From Centroscyllium fabricii (lineage: Eukaryota): 64,000 bases of DNA. Made by a program: the position numbers and the translations under genes. A model generated the notes under the pieces. It did not search any database. It was not told the origin of the DNA and saw only the letters and a program-made list of their open reading frames with translations. Shown here one piece after another: positions 1,479-63,250 of this stretch (position 1 is the first letter of the stretch; each line of letters begins with the position of its first letter). Where the stretch lies: positions 116,560,001-116,624,000 of the forward strand of contig JBNRSN020000008.1 of the NCBI GenBank assembly GCA_051313645.2, read 5' to 3'.

Positions 1479-1750
1479 TGTAGAGGCATGCAGGGCCGAA
1501 GAACCACACTGGACACAGAGGATTCGGAAAGTTATCATTTAATGTTACTACAGCTAGGGCCAGGTGGAAAAGAGAGTGAGCCACCTGGAGCTCAGGTATT
1601 TAAAGGTCCCGCGGCAGGTGACGTCACTGCCGGGTATCCACCTGGCGACGTCATCACGCCGGAAGTCGCGGTGACGTCAGCCCGGCGGGCGGGGCCGTCT
1701 TGCAGCGCTCCCGAGGCGGATTCGATGTTGTTGGTGGGCGTGTCGCCACA
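1479..1750 (-). repeat. 3' LTR of Gypsy A (272 bp)
   Basis: Near-identical to 11922-12200; preceded on the minus strand by the purine tract GGGGGGGAGCTG. Confidence 0.95.
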
Positions 1751-2110
1751 CAGCTCCCCCCCAGAATCCGTGAGGGAGAGCGGGGCTGGACCTAGAGGAG
1801 AGGGAGACATAAAGGAGAGCAAGCACACATTTTGAATTAACACATAGAATGTCCGGCAGTTTGCCGAGGTGGCCTGATGTTGTGGCCCGCACGTGTCGTG
1901 CGCTGTTCCGTGTTCCGAAAAGCGATGTTGCGGCGGGCTGATGGTGTAGCCTGCACGTGTCGTCTCAGGCGAGGCGCTGAGGTGGCCTGATGATGCGGCC
2001 AGCACGTGTTGTGCGCTGCTCCTTGTTCTGTGTAGGAGTGTGGGCGGGGTTTGGTGCGGTAGGGCGTCCGCGCTTTGGTGGCTGTGCGGGGACTGTTGTC
2101 TCGCCCGCCA

Positions 2111-4730
2111 TTACGTGTGCTGGTTTGAGATGGTCTCGGCTCTGTTGCCCATTTTAATTTCAAAAGTTTTGGGTCCCGCCCGAAGCACTCTGAATGGTCC
2201 GTCGTACGGTGGTTGTAGTGGTGTTCGATGTGCGTCGTGGAGGACAAACACATACTTGGCATTTTGGATGCCGTCTGGGACCCGTGCTGCCGGCTGTCCG
2301 TGCCGGGCCACCGGGAGTGGTTTTAATGCGGCTGCCTGATTATTAAAGTCTCTGAGGCAGCGCTCGGCTGACCAGGGTTCGTTGGTTTCTGCCACAAACT
2401 CGCCCGGTACCGTTAGTGGTTGGCCATAGACCAGTTCAGCTGCTGAGGCGTGCAGGTCTTCCTTGGCCGCTGAACGCAGGCCGAGCATTACCCAGGGCAG
2501 GCGGTCGGTCCAGGTTGCGTCTTGGAGGCTGGCCCGCAAGGAAGCTTTGAAAGATCGGTGGAACCGTTCGCAGAGGCCATTGGCCTGTGGGTGGTAGGCG
2601 GTGGTTCGGTGCAGGGTTGCCCCGAGGTCGTGGGCGATGGTTGCCCATAGGGTTGAGGTAAATTGGGGGCCCCTGTCTGAAGTGATGTCAGTGGGGACGC
2701 CAAAACGGGCGACCCAGGTGGCAATGAAGGCCCTGGCGAGGTCGGCGGTGGTGGTAGCTGTGAGGGGGACTGCTTCTGGCCAGCGGGTGCTGCGGTCGAC
2801 CATCGTTAAGATGTGTGAATGTCCACGTGATGGTGGTAGTGGTCCGACGAGGTCGACGTGTACGTGGCTGAAGCGTCTAGCTGGGACGGCGATGGTTTCG
2901 AGCGGTGCCTTGATGTGGTTGTGCACCTTGGCGCGCTGGCAGGCATTGCAGGAGTTGGTCCAGGCGCGGACATCTTTGCGTAGGCCGCGCCAAACGAATC
3001 GCGCAGAGATGAGTTTGGTGGACGCGCGGACACCGGGGTGGTACAGGCCATGGAGGGTCTGGAAGATGTGGCGCCTCCATGTGTGGGGGACGACGGGTCT
3101 GGGTTGGGGGAGGGAAACGTCGCAGCGGACCTCTCTGGCTGTGGGCCCGTGTGCTACGGTGGCCAGGAGCAGGCCGGGGAGGTTGGTGGCAGGGTCGAGC
3201 AGATCGGGGTCGGTTAGTTGGTCGGCCGCCATTTTAGTATAGTCGACGGCCGTTTGGACGGAGTTGATGGTTGGGCGTGAGAGGCAGAGCGCGCAGACGT
3301 TGTGGGTGGTGGGAGGCAGTCGGCGACCACGTTGTCGATGGTGGGGGGTGGTCGGAGGCCGGTTTGCCGATGGTGGGGCGTGAGAGGCAGTCAGCGACCA
3401 CGTTGTCGCGGCCGGCGATGTGTTGGATGTCGGTCGTGAATTCCGACACGGCCGCGAGCTGGCGCTGCTGCCTGGCCGACCAGGGTTCAGAGATCTTAGC
3501 CATTGCAGACACAAGTGGCTTGTGATCCACGAAGGCTGTGAAGTGGCGGCCCTCTAGGAGGAAGCAGAAGTGGCGCACCGCGAAGTAGAGAGCGAGTAGC
3601 TCCCTATCGAAGGCGCTGTACTTGACCTCCGGGGGCCGGAGTTGTCGGCTGAAAAAGGCCAGGGGTTGCCAGGAGTCGCCGGTCCACTGCTCAAAGACTG
3701 CTCCGACAGCGCGGTCGGAGGCGTCGGTGGTGAGGGCTACTCTGGCGTTGGGCCTAGGGTGGCTGAGGAGCGTGGCGTTGGCCAGGGCTGTTTTGGTTGC
3801 GGTAAAGGCGGTGGAGGCTTCGGCCGTCCACTCGACCGCAGCCTTGTTGGACTGCCCGCGGGTGGCCTGATAGAGGGGGGCCATGAGAGCGGCTGCTCCG
3901 GGGATGAAACGGTTGTAAAAGTTAACCATCCCGAGGAATTCCTGCAGCCCCTTGATGGAGTGCGGGCGAGGGAATTCCTGGACCGCCTGCACCTTGGAGG
4001 GCAGGGGTATGGCCCCGGTCTGGGAGATGTGGTGGCCGAGGAAGTCGATAGCCTCGAGGCCGAATCGACACTTGGAGGGGCTTAATATGAGGCCGTGTTC
4101 GGCCAGGCGGTCGAAAAGGGCCCTGAGATGGAGGAGGTGTTCCTGGGGGGAGGCGCTGGCCACGAGGATGTCGTCGAGATAGATGAACGTGAACTGCAAG
4201 TCCCGTAGGACTGAGTCCATGAGGCGTTGGAAGGCCTGGGCCGCGTTTTTCAGTCCGAAGGGCATTCGGAGAAATTCGAACAGGCCGAATGGGGTGATGA
4301 CGGCTGTCTTAGGGACGTCCGCCGGGTGCACTGGTACCTGGTGGTAGCCCCGTACCAGGTCGATCTTTGAAAAGACCGTGCAGCCGGCTAGCCTTGCGGA
4401 AAAATCTTGGATGTGGGGCACGGGGTACCTGTCTGGGGTGGTGGCGTTGTTAAGGCGGCGGTAGTCTCCGCAGGGGCGCCAGCCGCCGTCGGGTTTGGGG
4501 GCAATGTGGAGGGGGGAGGCCCAGGGGCTGCTGGAGCGGCGGATTATGCCGAGTTGTTCCATGATGTGGAACTCGGCGCGCGCGATCTCCAGCTTGGCTG
4601 GGTCCAGCCTGCGTGCGTGGGCATGGACTGGGGGGCCTGTGGTGGTGATGTGATGCTCCACACCGTGCTTGGCGGTGCGGGCTGTGAAGGTGGGGTTGGT
4701 TAGGGCTGGAAACTCCGCGAGCAGCGTGGC
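2111..4730 (-). pseudogene. Gypsy A pol: RT, RNase H, integrase (frameshift near 3270-3390, truncated IN C-terminus)
   Basis: SSSPWASPLHIAPKPDGGWRPCGDYRRLN, FIYLDDILVAS, TTDASD, YSAFDRELLA; IN HX3H...CX2C, HVHVDLVGPLP, TSDRGPQF, ANGLCERFHR, GPF motif. Confidence 0.92.
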
Positions 4731-4735
4731 GTACG

Positions 4736-5026
4736 TGACGTATCGTCAATACCTCAGATTAAAAGAGTCGACGAGTAGTTACCGAAACTAAAGGCTTTTA
4801 ATCGCTAAGAACGGAGCTACCCTCCGGAACGAACTTCAGTACAGGAATGAGGAGCCTCGGTCAGTTTCCACCTATAAAGGGCCTCACCTGGGGGAGGAGC
4901 TAGAGGTGTGGCTGACCTGGCTCCCAACAGTATTACACAGTATACAGGGCTGTGCCTTACATCTGCACAGCCCATTATTGGCACAATAATTACAGTGGTA
5001 AACAACTATATACAAGGGTTACCACA
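4736..5026 (-). repeat. 3' LTR of Gypsy B
   Basis: Direct repeat of 10402-10692. Confidence 0.95.
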
Positions 5027-6206
5027 TTCACCCCTTCTTGAAAATTTTAAGTCCGGGGGGGGGGGGGGGGGTGAATGGGCTGAACAGTTCATGATCAGTC
5101 TGTCCGGCGGTCGTGTCTGCCTGGAGGACCGCCGGCGTTCCGGTGTTGGTGGTGGTGCCTCCTGGTTCGTGCCACTTGCATCTGCCGGTGGTGACCGCTG
5201 ATCGGGTGCCGTGGGTTCTGGTGGCGATGGATCCGGCTGCTCCCCGCCGTCCGGGTCGTAGTTCAGTACTGGCCACTGCTCTGGGAAGCTCGGGGGCCAT
5301 CGTGTGTCTGGTGGGTTTTCTGGATACCGCGGCTGAGCGGCCTGCTGGCCGGCCAGGGGCTCTGTGGTGGTGCTTCCTGCGGGAGCCAGGTCCCTGATGG
5401 ACACGGTGTCCTCACGCCCGTCCGGGAACTGCACGAATGCATAGTGGGGGTTCGCGTGTAGGAGCTGTACCTTGTCCACCAGGGGGTCTGTCTTGTGGCT
5501 CCGGACATGTCTTCTAAGCCAAACCGGCCCCGGAGTCGTCAGCCATGGAGGAAGAGCTGTCCCCGAAGTCGATTTCCTAGGGAAGGAGAAAATCAGATCG
5601 TGCGGGGTGGCGTTAGTAGCAGTACATAATAGAGAGCGTATAGAGTGCAGCGCGTCTGGGAGGACTGCCTGCCAATGGGACACTGGAAGGCCTCTGGACT
5701 TGAGAGCCAGGGTGACCGCCTTCCAAATGATCCCATTCTCCCTTTCTACCTGGCCGTTCCCCCGGGGGTTATAACTGGTCGTTCTGCTCGTGGCAACCCC
5801 TTTCTGGAGCAGAAACTGGCGCAGTTCATCGCTCATGAACGATGACCCCCGGTCGCTATGGATGTAGCTGGGGAGACCGAAAATGGCGAACAGCGTGGTG
5901 AAGTGTTTGATCACCGTTGCGCTCGTCATATCTGCGCAGGAGAAGGCGAAGGGGAAGCAGGAGAACTCATCCACTACCGTGAGGAAGTATGAGTTGCGGT
6001 CGGTGGAAGGGAGGGGGCCTTTGAAGTCCACGCTGAGACGTTCAAAGGGGCGGGTGGCCTTAATGAGGTGCGCCGTGTCTGGCGGGAAAAAGTGGGGTTT
6101 GCACTCGGCGCAGACAGGGCACTCTCGGGTCATAGCCTTGATCTCCGTGATGGAGTAGGGGAGGCTACGGGACTTAACGAAGTGGGCGAGTCTGGTGACA
6201 CCCGGG
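5006..6206 (-). pseudogene. Gypsy B integrase, cut off from the rest of pol by the hAT insertion
   Basis: PGVTRLAHF...CPVC, LSVDFKGPLP, IHSDRGSSF, NGQVERENG. Joins LHDRLCHPG at 7305 once the insert is removed. Confidence 0.92.
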
Positions 6207-7304
6207 CAGTGTTGGGAAAGTTCACACTTAACAAGAGCTAGCTCAAAGTTCAGTTCAATCATTTTAAAATGAACTAGTTCAAGTTCATAGTTCATAATTT
6301 TGAATTTTGAACTTAAGTTCGCAGCTCAAAAATGAACTAGTTCAAAGTTCGTTTTTTTTTTCTTTTCTTCTAATGCGCTGCCCCGAGCTATTATTTTTCA
6401 ATAGAACATCCTCTTATCCATCCACTGACAGCCCCCAATCATTGCTACAGCCCATTAAAGAATAATAGAAGCTGATTACTTTATAAGTTTTATCACTGAA
6501 TCATTGTGTCAGTAGTTTCCTGTGGGGTAGAGTCAGTTTGAAGCAATGCAAATTATGAAGCAGGAGGAACAAATATCCGATATAGAGAACTGTCTGTATG
6601 TATATACACAGGCTGAGTATATAGGGTGGCATGGTGGCACAGTGCTTAGCACTGCTGTCTCACAGCACTGGAGACCTGGGTTCAAATCCAGCCTCGGGTA
6701 CTATCTGTGTGGAGTTTGCACATTCTCCCCGTGTCTGCGTGGGTTTCCTCCGGGTGCTCTGGTTTCCTCCCACAGTCCAAAGATGTGTGGGTTAGGTTGA
6801 TTGGCCATGATAAATTGACCCTTAGTGTTAGGGGGATTGAATATGTGGGGTTACGGGGATATGGTGGGATATGTGTCAGTGTAGGCTCAATAGGGATATG
6901 GGAAGAGGGCAGGGGCGGGTTACAGGGTTTGGATGATCAGCTGATCTCATTGAATGGTGGAGCAGGCTTGAATGGCCTACTCCTGCTCCTATCTTTCGAG
7001 AGAGAGAGAGAGAGATTGAGATTTTTTTGCAAAAAGCCCCGCAGAGCACTCAGTACAGGCGACAGAGTCCAGGTCCGGCACACTCACCGTTCAGGAGACG
7101 CCAGCAGCGATTCAGACTCGTGGAGACGATCTGCGCATGCGTTTGGCGTCACAAAGCGCGAGAGCGCCGCTCACACCCTCCAAAGCGAGCGCCACTCACG
7201 TTTTCGCTCAGGCTGCTGGGAAAGAGCACGCTCGTTCAGCGTTCACGAAAATGTGAACGCGCTCGTGAACGCCCGCTCATTTAGCGCGCTCACGGCCAAC
7301 ACTG
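6207..7304. mobile_element. Non-autonomous hAT DNA transposon (1098 bp)
   Basis: 9-bp TIR CAGTGTTGG/CCAACACTG; 8-bp TSD CACCCGGG at 6199-6206 and 7305-7312; subterminal arrays (AGTTCA on the left, CGCTC on the right). Confidence 0.9.
6624..6998 (+). mobile_element. tRNA-derived SINE (HE1/V-SINE-like) with CR1-type tail, inside the hAT
   Basis: A box TGGCACAGTGC, B box GGTTCAAATCC, GTGTGGAGTTTGCACATTCTCCCCGTG core, AATGGCCTACTCCTGCTCCTAT tail; homologous to 32270-32674 and 52326-52728. Confidence 0.85.
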
Positions 7305-10300
7305 CACCCGGGTGGCAAAGGCGGTCGTGGAGGTCCTTCAGCCGGTCTAGCTGGGCACTGGCGCACGTTCCCCTGGACAGTGCGTCCGGGGGTTCATTGA
7401 GTTTACCTGGTTGGTAAAGAATGTCATACTCGTAAGTCGAGAGTTCGATCCGCCACCGCAGGATCTTATCATTCTTGATTTTACCCCGTTGTTCATTATT
7501 AAACATAAACGCCACCGACCGTTGGTCGGTGAGCAGGGTAAAACGCTTACCGGCCAGGTAATGACGCCAGTAGCGCACGGCCTCCACGATGGCCTGGGCC
7601 TCCTTTTCCACTGCGGAGTGGCGAGTTTCGGGTCCCTGTAAGGTGCAGGAGAAAAACGCTACGGGCCTGCCTGCCTGATTCAGGGTGGCAGCAAGGGCAA
7701 AGTCTGAAGCGTCACTCTCCACCTGGAAAGGGATGGATTCATCAACAGCGAGCATGGTCGCCTTGATAATATCTTCCTTTATCCTTGCGAATGCCGTTTG
7801 GGCTTCTACAGAAAGGGGGAAGACCGCAGCCTTGAGGAGTGGTCTAGCCTTATCTGCGAACTGTGGGACCCATTGCGCATAATAGGAGAAAAATCCTAGG
7901 CATCTCCTCAAGGCTTTGGGGTTGTGAGGTAGGGGCAGTTCTTGCAGGGGTCGCATACGCTGTGGGTCGGGGCCGAGGACCCCGTTCTCCACCACGTATC
8001 CGAGGATGACGAGCCGGTCTGTATTAAAGACACATTTGTCCTTGTTATACGTAAGGTCCAGCTTGTCCGCCGTGTCGAGGAATTTGGCCAGATTGGCATC
8101 GTGGTCCTGCTGGTTGTGGCCGCAGATGGTCACGTTGTCCAGGTAAGGGAAAGTGGCCTGCAAGTCATTTTGGTCAACCATGCGGTCCATCTCCCGTTGG
8201 AACACCGACACTCCGTTGGTCACGCCAAAGGGGACCCGGAGGAAGTGGTAGAGCCGACCGTTCGCCTCGAAGGCGGTGTAGGGGCAGTCGGCTTTCCGAA
8301 TCGGGAGCTGATGATACGCCGATTTAAGGTCGATCGTGGAGAACACCTTGTACTGGGCGATCTGGTTGACCATGTCTGAGATGCGGGGAATGGGGTAGGC
8401 GTCGAGCCCGGTGTAGCGGTTGATAGTCTGGCTGTAATCGATAACCAGCCGCTGTTTCTCACCAGACTTCACCACGACAACTTGGGCGCGCCAGGGGCTG
8501 GTGCTGGCTTCAATTATCCCCTCCTTCCGCATCCGCCCGACCTCCGACCTGATAAACGTGTGATCCCCATCACTGTACCGCCGACTCTTAGTAGCAATGG
8601 GTTTGCACTTCGGATCGAGGTTGGCGAACAGCGAGGGGGGGTCGATTTTCAGGGTGGAGAGGCCGCAGGCCGGGCTCCGCTTTGGGAAGGGATTGTCCCG
8701 GCTACTGACGGTGAGGGGGGGCAAGGTCCCGCCGAACTCCATTGTCACGCTCTTGAGGTGGCACTGGAAATCCAAACCTAGTAAGGCTGGGGCACACAAC
8801 TGCTGGAGGGTATACAATTTAAAATTATGGTACACGCGCCCCTTGACGGTGAGCGCGACGGAGCAGTAGCCAGTGATGTCCGCGGTGTGGGACTGTGAAG
8901 CTAGGGAGACTTGGTAGTTAGTGGGCCGGACCTGCAGTCCGCAGCACTGCACTGTATCGGGGTGTACGAAACTCTCAGTGCTTCCTGTGTCAAAAAGGCA
9001 GTTAACCGTGTAGCCGTTAATCAAAATGGGCATTATAGAGTTAGACAGGGTATGTGGCCTGTCCTGGTTCACTCTGATTCTGGCTGCCGCAGCCATGCGT
9101 TTCCGTGTGCGTGGGGCCCTTGCTGGTCGGGGCTGTACACAAGATGGCGGCGCCCCTGGCTCGCACATGGTGGGGCCCTGGATACAAAATGGCGGCGCCC
9201 CTGGCCCGCACATGGAGGGGCCCTGGATACAAAATGGCGGCGCCCCTGGCTCGCACATGGAGGGGCCTTGGGTACAAAATGGTGTCGCCGGGGGGTCGCA
9301 CATGGTGGGCCGCTGTGAGCGCGCTGGCGGCGCCCGTGATTCGCACGCAGCGGACCGCGGTGATCGGGTTGGCGGTGCCCGTGATTCGCACGCAGCGGGC
9401 CGCGGTGGTCGGGTTGGCGGTGCCCGTGATTCACACGCAGCCGGCCGCGTTGGGGGGTCGCGCTTGGCCGGCCTTTGCCGCATCGGGGTGGGAGATAGGG
9501 GCGCTTGTTGTCTACCCCCGGACCGTCGCTGGATCGCGCTGCTATTGCAGCTTACCTGGTGTCTGTCGGTGCTCTCACAGGCTGCACTGTTGTACCTTGG
9601 GTTAGACGCTGCTGGAGCTGATCTGCAGGCTTTAGCGTAATGACCTTTCTTAGCGCATCTCTCGCAGGTCGCTGTCCTGGCCGGGCATCTCGCTCTTGGG
9701 TGCAGTCCCTGGCTGCAGAAGTAGCAGCGCTTATCTTTTGTGGCTGTCGCAGCCATCGTGGGGGTCTCGACCCGTTGTGGTGCTGCCCAGGCCTGGGCCC
9801 GTTGTGGCGCGGCCCAAATGTCGTAGGCTTGCGGGTTAGTGCCGCTGTACGCCTGTAACTTGTTTCGGGCCCCCTCTACTGATTTGGCTATCTTAGTCGC
9901 CTCCTCGAGGGACAGAGTGTCTTTCTCCAGTAGCCGCTGACGGGCTTCCACACACCGTAGTCCCGTAACGTAAGCGTCCCGAACGAGGAGTTCCGCCTCC
10001 TCTTCAGCTGTTCTGGCTTGGCAGCCACAGACCCATACCAGGGCCTGGAGCGCTTGCTCGAACTGCTCATTGGACTCACCCGGTAGCTGAGATCTGGTCG
10101 CAAGCACATGTCGGGCGTAAACCGAATGGACCGGGCGCTCGTAGCATTTTCGTAGTAGTGTTACGGCCGCTGTGTAGGTTGAGGCGTTCCTGATGAGGGA
10201 GAATACCCTGCTGGAGATCCTCGACCGGAGGACCTGCAGTTTGTTCCTGTCCGATGTAGCCTTGGCGGCGTCCATGTAGGCCTCCAGGAGGCCGAACCAG

Positions 10301-10377
10301 TGTTCGAACGTGGTAGCAGCGGCCAGGTCCTGGGGGCTGATGTCCAGCTTCTCAGGTTTAACTGCGCTGCTCTCCAT
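7305..10377 (-). CDS. Gypsy B gag-PR-RT-RNase H polyprotein; frame open up to the hAT insertion
   Basis: 1044-aa ORF: CYFC..H..C and CERC..GH...C knuckles, LFDTGS, SPWRAQVVVV, FPYLDNVTI, VESDASDF, EKEAQAI. Confidence 0.9.
9140..9450 (-). repeat. 45-bp (15-aa) coding tandem repeats between NC and PR of Gypsy B
   Basis: AACESRAPPTRPPRP x3, then MCEPGAPPFCIQGPS x4. Confidence 0.9.
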
Positions 10378-10401
10378 TTTAAAATATTTAGCGATTAAAA
10401 T

Positions 10402-10692
10402 TGACGTATCGTCAATACCTCAGATTAAAGGAGTCAACGAGTAGTTACCGAAACTAAAGGCTTTTAATCGCTAAGAACGGAGCTACCCTCCGGAACGAAC
10501 TTCAGTACAGGAATGAGGAGCCTCGGTCAGCTTCCACCTATAAAGGGCCTCACCTGGGGGAGGAGTTAGAGGTGTGGCTGACCTGGCTCCCAACAGTATT
10601 ACACAGTATACAGGGCTGTGCCTTACATCTGCACAGCCCATTATTGGCACAATAATTACAGTGGTAAACAACTATATACAAGGGTTACCACA
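10402..10692 (-). repeat. 5' LTR of Gypsy B
   Basis: Direct repeat of 4736-5026; the gag ATG lies 24 nt downstream. Confidence 0.95.
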
Positions 10693-10697
10693 GTACG

Positions 10698-11825
10698 TGT
10701 CGGAGTTCCGGGCTCGGCAGTGTGCCGCTGCGTGGGTCTGGTGTGCCGGCCTTGTGGAGCATGGGATGGTCGACATGTTGTGGATGTCGACCAGGCGGCG
10801 TCGGGTAACGTCGACCAGGAGGCCGTGGGCGCACAGAAAGTCGGCCCCGAGTAGGGTTATTTTGACTTGTGCAGTGATAAAGTCCCACGTGTACGTGTGG
10901 CCTGCCAGCTTGATGGTGAGCTGGCGGGTGCCGAACGTAAGTATCTCGGAGCCGTTTGCGGCTTCGAGTGGTGGGCCTTGGGTGCCTTGCTTGGCTTCTG
11001 CGGGGGAGGCTGGCACGATGCTGTGCTGCGCGCCTGTGTCGCAGAGGAAGCGGAGGCCTGAGACACTGTCTATGACGAAGAGCAGTGCTCCGGAGCGGCC
11101 TACGGACATGGTGGGGCCTGGGCTGGTTTGGGGTTTGAAGGTGCAGGGCTGGACGCAGCGCTGCGCTTTGGCTTCAAACCTGGTGTGGTAGTAGCACCAG
11201 CCTGGGCCCGTGGTGCGCGGTTTTTTGTGGGTCCGCACAGCTCTGGCTTGGGGCCTGGGTTGCGTGTAGTGCTGCTCTGGTGGGGCGGCAGCGTTACGGT
11301 GCATGGTGGCGCGGGTGCGCTCGGCCTTAATGAGCTTGTCTGCCTCCTGAGCTAGTTGCTTGTTAGGTGCTCCAGGACCATCAGAGTCGGTCTGACGGAG
11401 GGGGGTAGTTTAAGGAGGTACAAGGCGTGCTTGAGAGTGGCCGGGTCTGGGTTGAGCGCTTCGAACTGGGCCCACAGGTCGGTGGGGTCTGCGTCTCCCA
11501 GGTCGGGGAGGTTAATGACCTGGCAATCGCGCTCAAAAACGGTGGGGGTAAATTTTTGGAGCAGCGCGGCCTTTAGCGTTTCATACCTGCCAGCAGTAGG
11601 TTCTTGCTCGATGGAGTCCCACATTCTGTCGATGGTGGGCTGCGCAAGGGCTGCGAAGAGCAGGCTGTAGCGATCGTCCCCCTGCACGCCATAGATGCGG
11701 AAGGTGTTCTCAGTGTTGAGGAACCAGGCCGCTGGACGGAGTTCCCAGAACTCGGGTAGGGTTGGGATTTGGCTGCAGTGTTGACCCCGTCTGTGGTGGC
11801 GTGCTGTTTCGATCCCTGCTGGCAT
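10698..11825 (-). pseudogene. Gypsy A gag-protease (frameshift near 11355)
   Basis: LPEFWELRPAAWF gag N-terminus; WCYYHTRFEAKAQRCVQPC (CHCC); RFLCDTGA protease; LLGADFL. Confidence 0.9.
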
Positions 11826-11921
11826 GGTGGTTGCGATTCCACTGAGGCAGCTTGGCCCTCAGTCCTGCAGCGACTGCTTCATTGTTCCCTTGGGAATCGT
11901 CCCAAGTATCGAGGTCACCAC

Positions 11922-12200
11922 TGTAGAGGCATGCAGGGCCGAAGAACCACACTGGACACAGAGGATTCGGAAAGTTATCATTTAATGTTACTACAGCTAG
12001 GGCCAGGTGGAAAAGAGAGTGAGCCACCTGGAGCCCAGGTATTTAAAGGTCCCGCGGCAGGTGACGTCACTGCCGGGTATCCACCTGGCGACGTCATCAC
12101 GCCGGAAGTCGCGGTGACGTCAGCACGCCGCCCGGCGGGCGGGGCCGTCTTGCAGCGCTCCCGAGGCGGATTCAATGTTGTTGGTGGGCGTGTCGCCACA
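11922..12200 (-). repeat. 5' LTR of Gypsy A (279 bp), followed by Trp-type PBS at 11909-11920
   Basis: Direct repeat of 1479-1750. Confidence 0.95.
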
Positions 12201-43265: not shown

Positions 43266-45165
43266 CCATTTGTCTATAACCAGACTTTATTCAACCACTG
43301 TCTTTTGGTTCTCTTTCAGAATTTTGATGACTTTTCTCATCCCAAGACCCATCCTGCCTCAACTAGACTCTTACCTAACTTAAGCTATCTCTAATGTGTG
43401 CACCTGCTGCCAGGCTGGACCGAAAACCCACCTACTCTCATTTCTGGATAACCCAGGTGTCACCAATCATGATCAAATTAAACAAAAATGTCCCCTATTT
43501 AAAGGGCACAAACAATAAAATCTAAATTATAAATAAAAAGAAAGGAATCTTAAATGAATTAAATTAAGATACTGCTCCTTGTGTTGATGATGCATTCCAG
43601 TGACAATTGCAATCTGTACAAAATAAGTCTCAAACTTGCACTATCCCTTAAAACAATTTCCTGAAGCCATCATAATTTAGGGGTATCTCACGAAATGTGT
43701 TATTGGAACCAAGTCGATAAACAGATATAAGTTTCTTACACAATAAAAAGGGACAATAAATTAATTACAGCTATTAAGCAGGAAATTGTATACACAATTG
43801 AATCCTAACAAAAAATGGTTTAGAATGGAGATGGGAGTCTCCTGTTTTTCCCTTTCCTAGTTAGGAAAAAGTATAGCTCGGCCTATTTTTTGGAAAAGAA
43901 ATTGTCAATAAAACAATAGACATTTTACTCTGAATAGTTTTCAGTGATTTACCTCTCAAATTTTAATCATCTAAATAATAAATGTTCTAATTACAATTTT
44001 CTGTAATTCAAGGCAGAGGAAATGTTTGAAATTAAAAAAAATTAAACTTGATCTTTTTTCAGTCTGTAAAAAATTGTTTTACAACAAACTAAGCCTGGAC
44101 TAGAGGATATGCAGTGATTTTAAACAGTATTTGAACCTCTCATTTTTGTATAACTTATTTGTTGAAGTGAATCAAATTTCATAAGTTATTTAAATAAGTT
44201 ACTTGATTATTTTGAAGCAGAAATGAGGATGGTTTACAGATGAATTGCCAAAATTCACGACAGGTAGTTATTGAGGCAAAAACGATACCATTGTTTAAAA
44301 GGGAACCAAATAAGTCATTGAATCAGTCTGGAGTAAGCAACTGTACTTTACTCAACCAAAACATCGCCCAAGCAATTTCTTGGGAGTATGCCAATGTAGA
44401 ATCACAGAAATTGCAGCGCAAAAAAGAAGCCTGCTGTCACCCATAACTGTGCTAATTCTCATTCTTCAACGGGAGTTATATACTCTTATCCCATTTACTT
44501 GTCCTTTTTTGTGTAGCCTTTTATATTCTTCCTTTTCAAATACTTATTTAAATAATGTTAAATGTTTTCCCCTCAATAACCACTTGTGGTAAAACATTCC
44601 ATGTCCTATTAACCCTCTGTGTGATTTTTCTTTATAACTCCTCCCTTTGTCCTTGGGATAATCATAGAATCATACACCACAGAAGGAGACCATTTTTCCC
44701 ATCCTGCCTGTCCGGCTCCTTGAAACAACTATCCAGTTAGTCCCGTGCCACTGCTCTTTCCCCATAGCCCTGCAAATTTCCCACATTCAAGTATTTATCC
44801 AATTTCCTTTTGAAAGTTATAATGAATCTGCTTCCACCAGCCTTTCATTCAGTACATTCCAGATCATAACTTGCTGCATCATTTTTTCTTCCTCATGTCA
44901 CCTCTGGTTCTTTTGTCAATTTTCTTTTGTGTCCTCCGGTTACTGACCCTTCTGCCACTTGAAACAGTTTCTCCTAATTTACTCTTTCAAACCCTTTCAT
45001 GATTTTTTTTTGACGTTACTCTTTTATTTAAAACCCAATTACAAAACAACATTACTCAAAACATTTACAAAAAAACCCCAACATTACCGCACTCGAATCA
45101 CGGCAAATTCGCAAGCCCTCATGCCTACAAGGCAGGGGTCAAAGTCTCCAGCCCTCATGCCTACG

Positions 45166-46274
45166 AATGCTGTTTATTGACTACAGCTCAGCATTCAACA
45201 CCATCGTCCCCAGCAAATTGTCTAACAAACTCCTCACCCTCGGCCTGAACATCTCCCTCTGCAACTGGACCCTGGACTTCCTAACCAACAGACCACAGTC
45301 TGTGAAGTTAGGCAACCTCACCTCCCCCCCTTACCCTGAACACGGGGGCCCCACAAGGTTGTGTGCTGAGCCCCCTCCTCTACTCCCTCTTCACTCACGA
45401 CTGTGCAGCTGTCCATGGCTCCAACACGATCATCAAGTTTGCGGATGACACCACGGTGGTTGGCCAGATCACCAACAACGACGAGTCAGCCTACAGGGAT
45501 GAGATCCAGCGCCTTGTGGGTTGGTGTGCCGACAACAACCTGGCACTGAACACCGAGAAAACTAAGGAGATCATAGTGGACTTCCGGAGGACTGGAAGCA
45601 GAAGACACACCCCCATCTTCATCCAAGGGGCTGAGGTGGAAAGGGTGTCCAGCTTCAAGTTCCTCGGTGTCCACATCTCGGAAGATCTCTCCTGGTCACT
45701 AAACACCTCCTCTCTGGTCAAGAAGGCCCAACAGCGCCTGTACTTCCTAAGGAAGCTGAAGAAAGCCAGGCTGTCATCCGGCATCCTCTCCAACTTCTAC
45801 CGCTGCACAATAGAAAGCATACTGACAAGCTGCATCACTGTCTGGTATGGAAATTGCACTATCTCAGACCGAAAAACCCTGCAGCGGGTAGTCAAAACTG
45901 CCCAACGAATCACCGGTACCCAGCTACCGTCAATGGAAAGCATCTACCTCAAACGCTGCTTACGGAGGTCTATGAACATTATTAAAGACCCCACACACCC
46001 CAGCCACAGTCTGTTCGCCCCCCTGCCCTCCGGGAGACGCTACAGATCAATTCGCACCCGCACGACTAGATTTCAGAACAGCTTCTTCCCCAGGGCTGTC
46101 AGCCTCCTGAACTCTAAAAATAAACTCCGGTACCTGCACGCCTGATAATGTACTTTACTGTATGCAATTTGCATGTAATTTATTTGCACTACTCTCGGGA
46201 GAGTCGAGTCTTCGTCTCGTTTTATTGTACTCGTACTCTGCAATGACAATAAAACTTGAATTGAATTGAATTGA
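45166..46274 (+). mobile_element. Rex1/Babar-type LINE, 5'-truncated, near intact
   Basis: [55 protein letters not shown]; tail AATAAAAC(TTGAA)4. Confidence 0.9.
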
Positions 46275-46535
46275 AAAGTCTCCAGCCCTCATGCCTACAA
46301 TGCAGGGGTCAAAGTCTCCAGCCCTCATGCCTACAAGGCAGGGGTCAAAGTCTCAAGCCCTCATGCCTACAAGGCAGGGGTCAAAGTCTCAAGCCCTCAT
46401 GCCTACGAGGCAGGGGTCAAAGTCTCAAGCCCTCATGCCTACGAGGCAGGGGTAAAAGTCACAACAAGCCCTCATGCCCACAAGGCAGGGGTCACGATCA
46501 CAAGTCCTCATGCCTGCAAGGCAGGGGTCCAAGTC
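46275..46535 (+). repeat. 36-bp minisatellite (also 45110-45164), probably in the 3'UTR of a minus-strand Tx1/L1-like element (45003-46666)
   Basis: Unit AAAGTCTCMAGCCCTCATGCCTACAAGGCAGGGGTC, about 7 copies, split by Rex1. Confidence 0.85.
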
Positions 46536-46876
46536 TCTCCAAGCTTCCCGGTCATCTTCGCCCATTCATCTGGACAGCGGGTCTCCAGGAAAACACACAG
46601 ATGGGGGTCGGCGCTCCCAGCGGATGGCTGGTGCAGATCCGGCAGTCTCCGGTTGACGCTACTCCATCAAGCAATATAAACTAAATGGTTCCTGCACCCC
46701 TTTAAAATGATACCATTTAGTTTATATTGCTTCACCTCATTCTTCCGACCAAAATGAATCGTTTCACACTTCTCTGCCTTAAATGTCATCATGTGGAGGT
46801 GCCGGTGTTGGACTGGGGTGGACAAATGCAAGAAGTCACACAACACCAGATTATAGTCCAACGGTTTTATTTTAAA

Positions 46877-61720: not shown

Positions 61721-62202
61721 ATTTTAAAAAACTTTTTGAGGCTGTGGAATTCACTTCCTGGATTGGTGATTGAGGCAGAAACAAATGTCAACATTCAAGA
61801 TTAGGTTGGATAGATGGGTGCAGGAAAAGCGATTGAAGGGATATGGGAACAGGATGGTTAAATATGATTGGAACTATTTGCTCGTGTAACCCTTTTTACG
61901 ATTGGCCCCCCCCCTCTCCTTTACTGAGAATGGGGGGGTTAGGTTACCACCAATTACCCCGTAGGTTCTGAACGTACCCCACGTGTAGAAATCTGTGACC
62001 TCCACCCAAATGTAACCCTTTTACCTTAAGAGAGATGAATCAGAGACAAAATTTCTATTAACAAACTTTAATAACAGGGATGTGAGGTAGAGTTTAAATA
62101 CAAACAGTGTTAAACAACTAGCAACTGCATACACAAATAGAAAGCAGCATTAATGTCATACAACAAATCATTTACACATTCATTCAGCTCACAGCCACTC
62201 CC

Positions 62203-62488
62203 AAGAACACACTTCAATCAGAACTTTACAATGGCAAGGCACTCGCTTTAGCACCCTTCCAGAACACATTTCAATCAGAACTTTACAATGGCAAGGCACT
62301 CGCTTTAGCACCCTTACAGAACACATTTCAATCAGAACTTTACAATGGCAAGGCACTCGCTTTAGCACCCTTACAGAACACATTTCAATCAGCACTTTAC
62401 ACTGGCAAGGCACTCGCTTTAGCACCCTTACAGAACACATTTCAACTGGACATTTACAATGGCAAGGCATCCACTTTAGCACCCTTAC
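62203..62488. repeat. 57-bp tandem array, about 5 copies
   Basis: AGAACACATTTCAA recurs at 62261, 62318, 62375 and 62432. Confidence 0.92.
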
Positions 62489-62522
62489 ACCTTGTTCCCC
62501 AAGCCATTTTCTCAGAAGTTAT

Positions 62523-63250
62523 ACTCACGACTGTCCGAATAGGGCTTGACAATGAGGACCGTACACTACAGTCTCCTCATCTCAAGGGAGACAACGACGG
62601 CTCTTGGATCTGCCTCTGTCCTTTTAACACGAAAGCTTCCAGCATCTTCCAGCAGTGGGCGTCGCACACAGCTCTCCACCCTCTGCTTCCTGCAACCTCG
62701 TCTTCCCCAAGCCCCTCTCCCGGTAGCCGCCACCCACGACTGTCCGAACAGGGCTTGGCAATGAGTACCGTACACTACAGCCTACTCATCCCAAGGGAAA
62801 CAACGACGGCTCTTGGGACTGTCTCTCAGTCCTTTTAACACGAAAGCCTCCAGCCTCTTCCAGCAATGGGCGTCGCACACAGCTCTCCACCCTCTGCTTC
62901 CTGCAACCTCGTCTTCCCCAAGCCCTTCTCTCAGTAGCCGCCACTCACGACTGTCCGAATAGGGCTTGGCAATGAGTACCGTACACAACAGCCTACTCAT
63001 CCCAAGGGAAACAACGACGGCTCTTGGGACTGTCTCTCAGTCCTTTTAACACGAAAGCCTCCAGCATCTTCCAGCAATGGGCGTCGCACACAGCTCTCCA
63101 CCCTCTGCTTCCTGCAACCTCGTCTTCCCCAAGCCCTTCTCTCAGTAAGTGCTACTCACGACTGTCCAAATAGGGCTCGACGATGAGGACCGTACACTAC
63201 AGCCTCCTCATCCCCAGGGAGATAACGACGGCTCTTGGAACTGCCTCTCT
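62523..63250. repeat. About 210-bp tandem array, about 3.4 copies
   Basis: CACGACTGTCC recurs at 62526, 62735, 62946 and 63157. Confidence 0.92.

Follow-up and report, generated by a model that had tools for sequence, protein, structure and literature searches.

A primer site complementary to its own LTR across an animal Ty3/gypsy lineage, and the case for self-priming

In the LTR retrotransposon Tf1 the RNA's first 11 bases pair with the primer binding site (PBS), RNase H cutting between base 11 and base 12 (PMC7175516), and an extra structure next to the primer duplex, the 'pretzel', has been described (bioRxiv 10.1101/2022.12.06.519325). Self-priming has also been predicted from PBS-LTR complementarity in the copia TAR lineage (Houba and Osr-1) and in the plant Tcn1 clade, and TAR is a case in which the trait arose outside Tf1/sushi (PMC6317226). 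The mechanism class is already known from Tf1, and a second origin has already been predicted in copia. In fungal GalEa elements, the available part of PMC5445492 describes a Conserved Hairpin Site, with no tRNA site and conserved pairing at the PBS position. The available portions of the papers that we consulted tie self-priming to Tf1/sushi, Tcn1 and copia TAR (PMC6934838, PMC3601003, PMC8220671, PMC8556966, PMC4600332, PMC6317226, PMC7175516, bioRxiv 10.1101/2022.12.06.519325, PMC5371799, PMC5445492, PMC5341516, PMC6238403). Among openly readable papers we found no description of self-priming in the lineage reported here. For animal LTR elements, priming by a tRNA is taken to be the norm, and among Gypsy elements Tf1/sushi is the exception.

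The element in question, Gypsy B, lies on the minus strand of the window (the whole 64-kb stretch of Centroscyllium fabricii DNA that was analysed) and runs from 10692 to 4736. Its 5′ LTR (10402–10692, 291 bp, TG...CGTCA) and 3′ LTR (4736–5026) are identical at 287 of 291 bases, with four differing positions, and a 5-bp target site duplication, CGTAC, flanks the element at 10693–10697 and 4735–4731. Gag, protease, RT and RNase H share one frame from the ATG at 10377, which is 24 nt past the 5′ LTR, as a preliminary description of this DNA had stated. This frame (7305–10377), with two CCHC knuckles and a YLDN motif, extends up to an insertion, beyond which lie the remainder of the integrase (5040–6206; Pfam rve, no chromodomain) and, before the 3′ LTR, a polypurine tract with AA at its end (5027–5039). 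The two knuckles, the SPWRAQVVVV motif and the lack of a chromodomain (by Pfam) are all as first described. Gypsy B thus has the Ty3/gypsy order gag-PR-RT-RNase H-IN between LTRs, together with a polypurine tract and a target duplication. Its RNase H domain was found by domain search, and its cleaving activity is predicted. Six 45-bp in-frame tandem repeats (about 9088–9402) lie between gag and protease, where the linker is longer than in the relatives.

The 1.1-kb insertion (6207–7304, so 7304–6207 in the direction of Gypsy B) is non-coding and interrupts the zinc-finger region of the integrase; it has 9-bp terminal inverted repeats and an 8-bp target duplication, and we take it to be hAT-like. 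It carries a SINE-like repeat, other copies of which occur elsewhere in the window. Gypsy B itself sits in the pol gene of another minus-strand element, Gypsy A (1479–12200; LTRs at 12200–11922 and 1750–1479, 4-bp duplication CTGT), giving four nested layers: Gypsy A, Gypsy B, the insertion and the SINE-like repeat. Gypsy A has a DUF7041 gag, contains stops and frame breaks, and groups with rows of our trees that we presume to be of CsRn1 type. It has a TGG-type primer site one base after its LTR (11909–11920, minus strand), and so provides an internal control with a normal tRNA-type site. A plus-strand TATAAA at 10537–10544 lies in the LTR antisense to Gypsy B, at a position not common to the relatives, and tandem arrays with units of 36, 57 and 211 bp, unrelated to the primer site, occupy 45069–46539 and 62147–63246 of the window.

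The primer site position of Gypsy B (10388–10400) begins TTTT, not TGG, and reads TTTTAATCGCTAA (10400–10388), the exact reverse complement of 10474–10462 within the element's LTR. That the site is a perfect 13-nt complement of its own LTR and has no TGG was the central claim of the preliminary description, and the match is exact. A single A (10401) separates the end of the LTR from the site. The complementary LTR segment (10462–10474, minus strand), which we call the arm and which is the predicted self-primer, has its second copy at 4808–4796, and the three exact occurrences of the 13-mer in the window are the two LTRs and, inverted, the primer site. The ATTAAA reported earlier within the arm was located at 10468–10463; it is a putative poly(A) signal that would be used in the 3′ LTR copy. 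An Rfam search over 10250–10750 gave no matches. In folding calculations the long helix of arm and primer site dominates, with pair probabilities of 0.54–1.0 in three sequence contexts, the largest of which is the entire LTR with a further 100 nt, and the 131-nt region folds with z = −2.0. A small 7-bp hairpin across the LTR end (ATTGACG-ATA-CGTCAAT, 10400–10416), which shares base 10400 with the long helix, is a minor competitor, at 0.23–0.44 in the same three contexts.

Close relatives of this copy were found in contigs from four of 21 listed runs, with different organism codes, which were aligned to 10200–10760. In all four runs contigs continue over the LTR-site-gag junction with a non-TGG site. 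This supports the absence of TGG from other copies; a normal TGG there would have marked the arrangement as a local rearrangement. Among the best 40 of 105 contig differences none falls at 10394–10400, and those inside the two arms of the helix are at 10392, 10393 and 10469. Positions 10393 and 10469 are pairing partners and are changed together in one contig (X17, record 17), which also carries the unpaired change at 10392. All three changes are CpG transitions and their shares in run X14 do not match; the joint change is weak evidence of compensation.

More distant relatives were collected with a gag profile, which matched 460 metagenome stretches, of which 355 were confirmed and the best 80 of these 355 examined (29–42% identity in the best segment). 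Four of the 80 were skipped, having less than 70 nt upstream of gag, and the remaining 76 with the window make 77 loci, in which an upstream complement was sought for each CA within 110 nt before the gag start. At 53 of the 77 loci the first 11 pairs or more match perfectly, counted from one base past a CA that resembles an LTR end; 36 of 7500 dinucleotide shuffles of the same segments pass this test. Nine further loci have one mismatch, and 15 have no pairing at the anchor. The loci fall into 27 gag sequence clusters, 26 of which were examined for pairing, and 21 of the 26 contain a perfect case; several clusters come from one assembly, so they are not all independent hosts. Of 29 listed rows with two LTR stretches, both LTR ends could be read in 18, and in the intact ones the site lies one base after the terminal CA. 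The pairing is thus a real feature of the whole lineage and no local accident.

The exceptions are of several kinds. Among the 15 failures, L054, L070 and L078 have the pairing with the LTR end or the arm changed, and L009, L043 and L061 are apparently shortened relative to their family mates. Of the five clusters that lack a perfect case, F23 has a leader that matches a cut-off 3′ LTR at the contig end over 12 nt, F26 pairs over 9 bp only, and in F09, F21 and F24 the complement search before gag gave no evidence of pairing. At the F21 locus L031 a CA is closely followed by TGG, roughly 51 nt ahead of the ATG at 119; its LTR end is undefined and it has no detectable self-pairing, and it could be a tRNA-primed member or a rearranged copy. 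A skipped locus, L024, has a 14-nt match in its contig tail. In the family of L027, L029 and L032 (leader before 5989) the match reaches 19 nt, up to the gag ATG, and copies are split between match and mismatch at position 14.

Named relatives come from rays, sharks, corals, an anemone, a sea slug, flukes, nematodes and crustaceans. A search of viral contigs gave no relative, a search of the ESM Atlas gave generic gag clusters only, and ARAGORN called no tRNA in the window and made one doubtful call in the 31 loci scanned of the 80. Some loci are flanked by Gypsy neighbours with the integrase upstream of RT (L046, 2–3400; L035, 9900–12732; L029, 2500–5786; L039, 10000–12732), an order that we take to be of Gmr1 type; two of these neighbours were used as outgroups.

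We defined 27 family variants as the distinct combinations of cluster and 11-mer among the perfect loci; they were chosen for perfect first 11 pairs, so that all 27 match their own LTR by selection, and across clusters a match occurs in only 6 of 678 comparisons. At each of positions 6–11 all four Watson-Crick pair types are seen. Over all arm positions of the variants 349 of 351 pairs are Watson-Crick, two are mismatches and none is G-U, the lack of G-U being partly built into the selection; in a wider set of 63 loci with at least 11 of 13 pairs there are 802 Watson-Crick pairs, one G-U and 16 others. Pairing holds at positions 12 and 13 in 26 of 27 variants, and is found at position 14 in 16 of 26 and at position 17 in 6 of 26. 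The spacer between LTR end and site is A in 27/27, the site starts TTT in 24, TTA in two, TCT in one and TGG in none, and loops between arm and site are 24–72 nt long. After the arm comes G or A (26/27), then C (27/27), then C (24/27), that is, RCC. Conservation of the pairing across relatives, on which the original proposal had been made to depend, was upheld: the letters differ among the variants and the pairing is kept. Two single cases from one family bear on how this happens. In L046 the same substitution is present in both LTRs with the matching change in the primer site, and L040, in which both LTRs are changed and the old primer site is kept, is the intermediate predicted by a model of primer copying (below).

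A conserved structure also accompanies the arm, although it is not the one first proposed. The LTR-boundary hairpin of the preliminary description is present at 10416–10400 in the window copy, but it is not a conserved U5 inverted repeat; pairing of the LTR end exceeds shuffles in only 10 of 27 families, and so the hairpin is particular to the window copy's family. What is conserved in its place is, usually, an RCCT/AGGY hairpin that stacks on the end of the arm. The loop contains AGGY in 17 of 27 variants (3.8 would be expected), and in 22 of 27 the pairing of the four bases that follow the arm exceeds that in loop shuffles (0.66 vs 0.33). This motif was noticed and then tested in the same data, and its p-value does not come from an independent set. 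In the window copy its two sides are GCCT directly after the arm (10458–10461) and AGGT (10417–10420); the hairpin is weak there, with a pair probability of 0.15–0.26. In the 17 families the first pair of this hairpin is G-U in nine, A-U in five, G-C in three and never A-C, and the contrast in G-U pairs would fit an ordinary RNA hairpin beside a helix one side of which is copied from the other. When flank pairing is compared with shuffles, the three-duplex 'pretzel' of Tf1 is not evident in the 27 variants: the LTR end pairs with the loop above shuffle in 9/27, which is at chance, and the downstream leader with the loop in 18/27 (6.3 vs 5.7 nt), slightly above chance.

Of the 27 arms, 16 contain a canonical hexamer (AATAAA or ATTAAA), which in 15 cases finishes exactly where the arm does; nine more arms have a near variant from the commonly listed set, and two (L052 and L059, which pair for 11 and 15 nt, respectively) have no listed variant. 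L019, L034 and L052, whose arms have no canonical hexamer, carry one in the loop and not in the helix. The suggestion that the fold hides the 5′ poly(A) signal accordingly fails as a general purpose, with 16/27 arms canonical and 2/27 without a listed hexamer variant, and survives at most as a secondary one. The arm 5′ end usually reads Y-D-A-G-Y at positions 13–9 (10474–10470 in the window), with A at position 11 in 22/27 and G at position 10 in 22/27. An RNA starting at the position-11 A would, by analogy, give an 11-nt primer as in Tf1, and the pairing at positions 12 and 13 suggests that the RNA often reaches beyond position 11. No TATA box was found at a fixed distance of 25–35 nt upstream of the arm in the 27 variants, and the 13th arm base is a pyrimidine in 25/27; for these two reasons we leave the start position loose. 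The Y-D-A-G-Y motif is preceded by T-rich sequence and is initiator-like, but C never precedes the A. A splice acceptor upstream of the arm is unsupported (4/22, with 2.0 expected), and the AG at arm positions 11–10 is unlikely to be one, with C before it in 0/27 and pairing running across it.

The reading that we favour, and consider quite probable, is that the primer site pairs with the 13-nt stretch of the element's own LTR, and that this stretch is cut from the element's own RNA and used as primer instead of a tRNA. The cut is predicted between AAA and RCC, which in the window lies between 10462 and 10461. The RNA would start at or near the arm 5′ end, 11–13 nt before the cut; the arm would pair with the primer site, and the RCCT/AGGY hairpin would stack on the arm-site helix. 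The cut between AAA and RCC would then be made by a nuclease, which on the Tf1 precedent would be the RNase H of the element itself, and would leave a 3′ end paired beside the LTR boundary, from which RT could copy U5 and the rest of R before jumping to the 3′ LTR. With the usual spacing, the hexamer that ends the arm there would set the poly(A) site 10–30 nt past the cut and so leave overlap for the jump. Plus-strand synthesis would copy the primer into the next primer site, and the match would in this way stay strictly Watson-Crick. Self-priming as originally claimed is thus well supported by the comparative evidence, while three of its details (the hairpin, the poly(A) signal, and the Mag-like assignment with its bearing on origin) are weaker.

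Other readings of the same match deserve to be weighed. The primer might be LTR-derived and yet arise without a Tf1-type cut of the folded genomic RNA, as a short capped or prematurely ended RNA, or as the RNA end of another copy or of the 3′ LTR, annealing in trans. The comparative signs indeed attest only to the match of arm and site and not to how the arm's 3′ end arises, and the canonical hexamer, which where present nearly always (15 of 16) finishes precisely with the arm, ties that end to RNA-processing signals; however, the usual place of poly(A) cleavage is well downstream of the hexamer and not at it, the loops are short (24–72 nt), and the invariant C two bases after the arm (27/27) with the stacked hairpin fits a structure-defined cut in cis, so that we judge the trans route unlikely. 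It is also improbable, to our minds distinctly so, that the helix serves mainly to hide the poly(A) signal of the 5′ LTR while priming takes another route. A canonical hexamer in 16/27 arms, a near variant in nine more, and a helix that exists only at the 5′ end, as masking requires, are what this reading would predict; but L059 and L052 pair over 15 and 11 nt with no listed hexamer in the arm, three families have a canonical hexamer in the loop outside the helix, and beside the LTR no alternative primer site is seen. A masking helix should moreover tolerate G-U pairs and a drifting register, and the arm-site helix does neither. Masking may be a side benefit, one that would leave the fixed register and the exceptions unexplained.

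Half-tRNA priming exists in copia elements (PMC6317226), and the site might by that precedent bind an internal tRNA segment or a half-tRNA, the LTR match being incidental. This seems very improbable, since each of the 27 variants matches its own LTR and only 6 of 678 comparisons match that of another cluster, and tRNAs from an unchanging pool would not follow a change in the LTR like that of L046. There remains the idea that the window copy, which is old enough to have been interrupted by another insertion, once had a normal primer site and lost it to a local inversion or duplication. The same arrangement in 20 other gag clusters and the contigs continuous across the junction in four runs refute it, 10394–10400 being also unchanged among the best 40 of 105 differences, and we give it almost no credence.

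The placement of the lineage bears on whether such priming arose separately. The relatives are about 4.0–4.5 kb long with one ORF of 1187–1283 aa, and the closest named ones by RT are from rays and a catshark, which makes a cartilaginous fish the probable host. A PDB search gave Ty3 RT as the best hit, which does not settle the clade. No chromodomain was found by Pfam, at E up to 0.01, in the pieces of the window or in 9/9 uninterrupted relative ORFs. In a tree of RT/RNase H with 55 rows (quick search, mixture model) a long branch with support 100 separates the 23 lineage rows, taken together, from the chromodomain-bearing, the Mag-type, the CsRn1-type and the Gmr1-type rows. These group labels come from Pfam chromodomain calls, domain order, source names and characteristic motifs, with no named Tf1, sushi, Mag or Cigr-1 among the rows; the Mag rows are those that we presume to be such from motifs and 'K02A2.6-like' source names. 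A search for representatives gave mostly multi-domain fusions, which were left out of the trees. In a set reduced to 34 rows (lineage rows cut from 23 to 8, six other rows dropped; quick search, LG+G4), AU tests rejected both nestings of the lineage among three chromovirus-type rows, two with a Pfam chromodomain and one grouping with those two (p = 0.006). The test did not reject the lineage as sister to the chromovirus-type rows (p = 0.15), as sister to the Mag-type rows (p = 0.42) or in two positions inside Mag (p = 0.15 and 0.08); in both free trees the lineage RT falls outside the six to seven Mag-type rows.

By these chromodomain and nesting tests, made without a named Tf1 or sushi reference, the lineage is not a member of Tf1/sushi. 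Because it has no chromodomain, has an RT branch of its own, and is rejected as nested among chromodomain elements, an origin of self-priming separate from Tf1/sushi is likely, although unproven. The element had been called Mag-like. Its gag fits, since the lineage has two CCHC knuckles and no chromodomain, as we understand the Mag lineage (A, B and C clades) to have; but its RT forms a long branch of its own in trees that hold no named Mag reference. A lead to a clade name is presumably Cigr-1, with 245-bp LTRs and an ORF of about 1210 aa, close to that of the relatives; one row in the available part of a supplement labels Cigr-1 as Mag (PMC6238403).

The fullest account would be that a widespread animal Gypsy lineage left tRNA priming independently of Tf1/sushi, that a single 13-nt stretch of the LTR has two roles, as the primer at the 5′ end and the poly(A) signal at the 3′ end, that RCC and the stacked hairpin mark the cut, and that copying of the primer rewrites the site in each cycle; taken as a whole we regard it as an even chance. 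If true, a second broad self-priming lineage of Gypsy elements would mean that the switch is repeatable, and its many natural variants could be used to test what RT/RNase H recognises in cutting an RNA duplex. Such elements would presumably escape control by tRNA fragments aimed at primer sites, and they would be overlooked or ranked low by annotation tools for which a tRNA site is obligatory.

Compared with the described systems, the Gypsy B lineage differs from GalEa, where, in the available part of PMC5445492, both pairing arms lie downstream of the LTR and no LTR complement was found, whereas here one arm is inside the LTR. TAR belongs to Ty1/copia in plants and Tcn1 is a chromovirus clade, whereas this is an animal Ty3/gypsy group. 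From Tf1/sushi it differs in having no chromodomain, two gag knuckles and its own RT branch, and from Tf1 in that flanking 'pretzel' duplexes are not evident and the predicted cut usually coincides with the end of a poly(A)-like hexamer. With Tf1/Tf2 of Schizosaccharomyces pombe, Tj1 and the Tf1/sushi chromoviruses it nevertheless shares the lack of a tRNA site and a post-LTR site that complements an LTR segment; the match is of similar length, 11 nt in Tf1 (available text of PMC7175516) and a 13-nt core here, and extra structure lies by the primer duplex (available text of bioRxiv 10.1101/2022.12.06.519325), in this lineage as a hairpin that is predicted to stack on the primer 3′ end.
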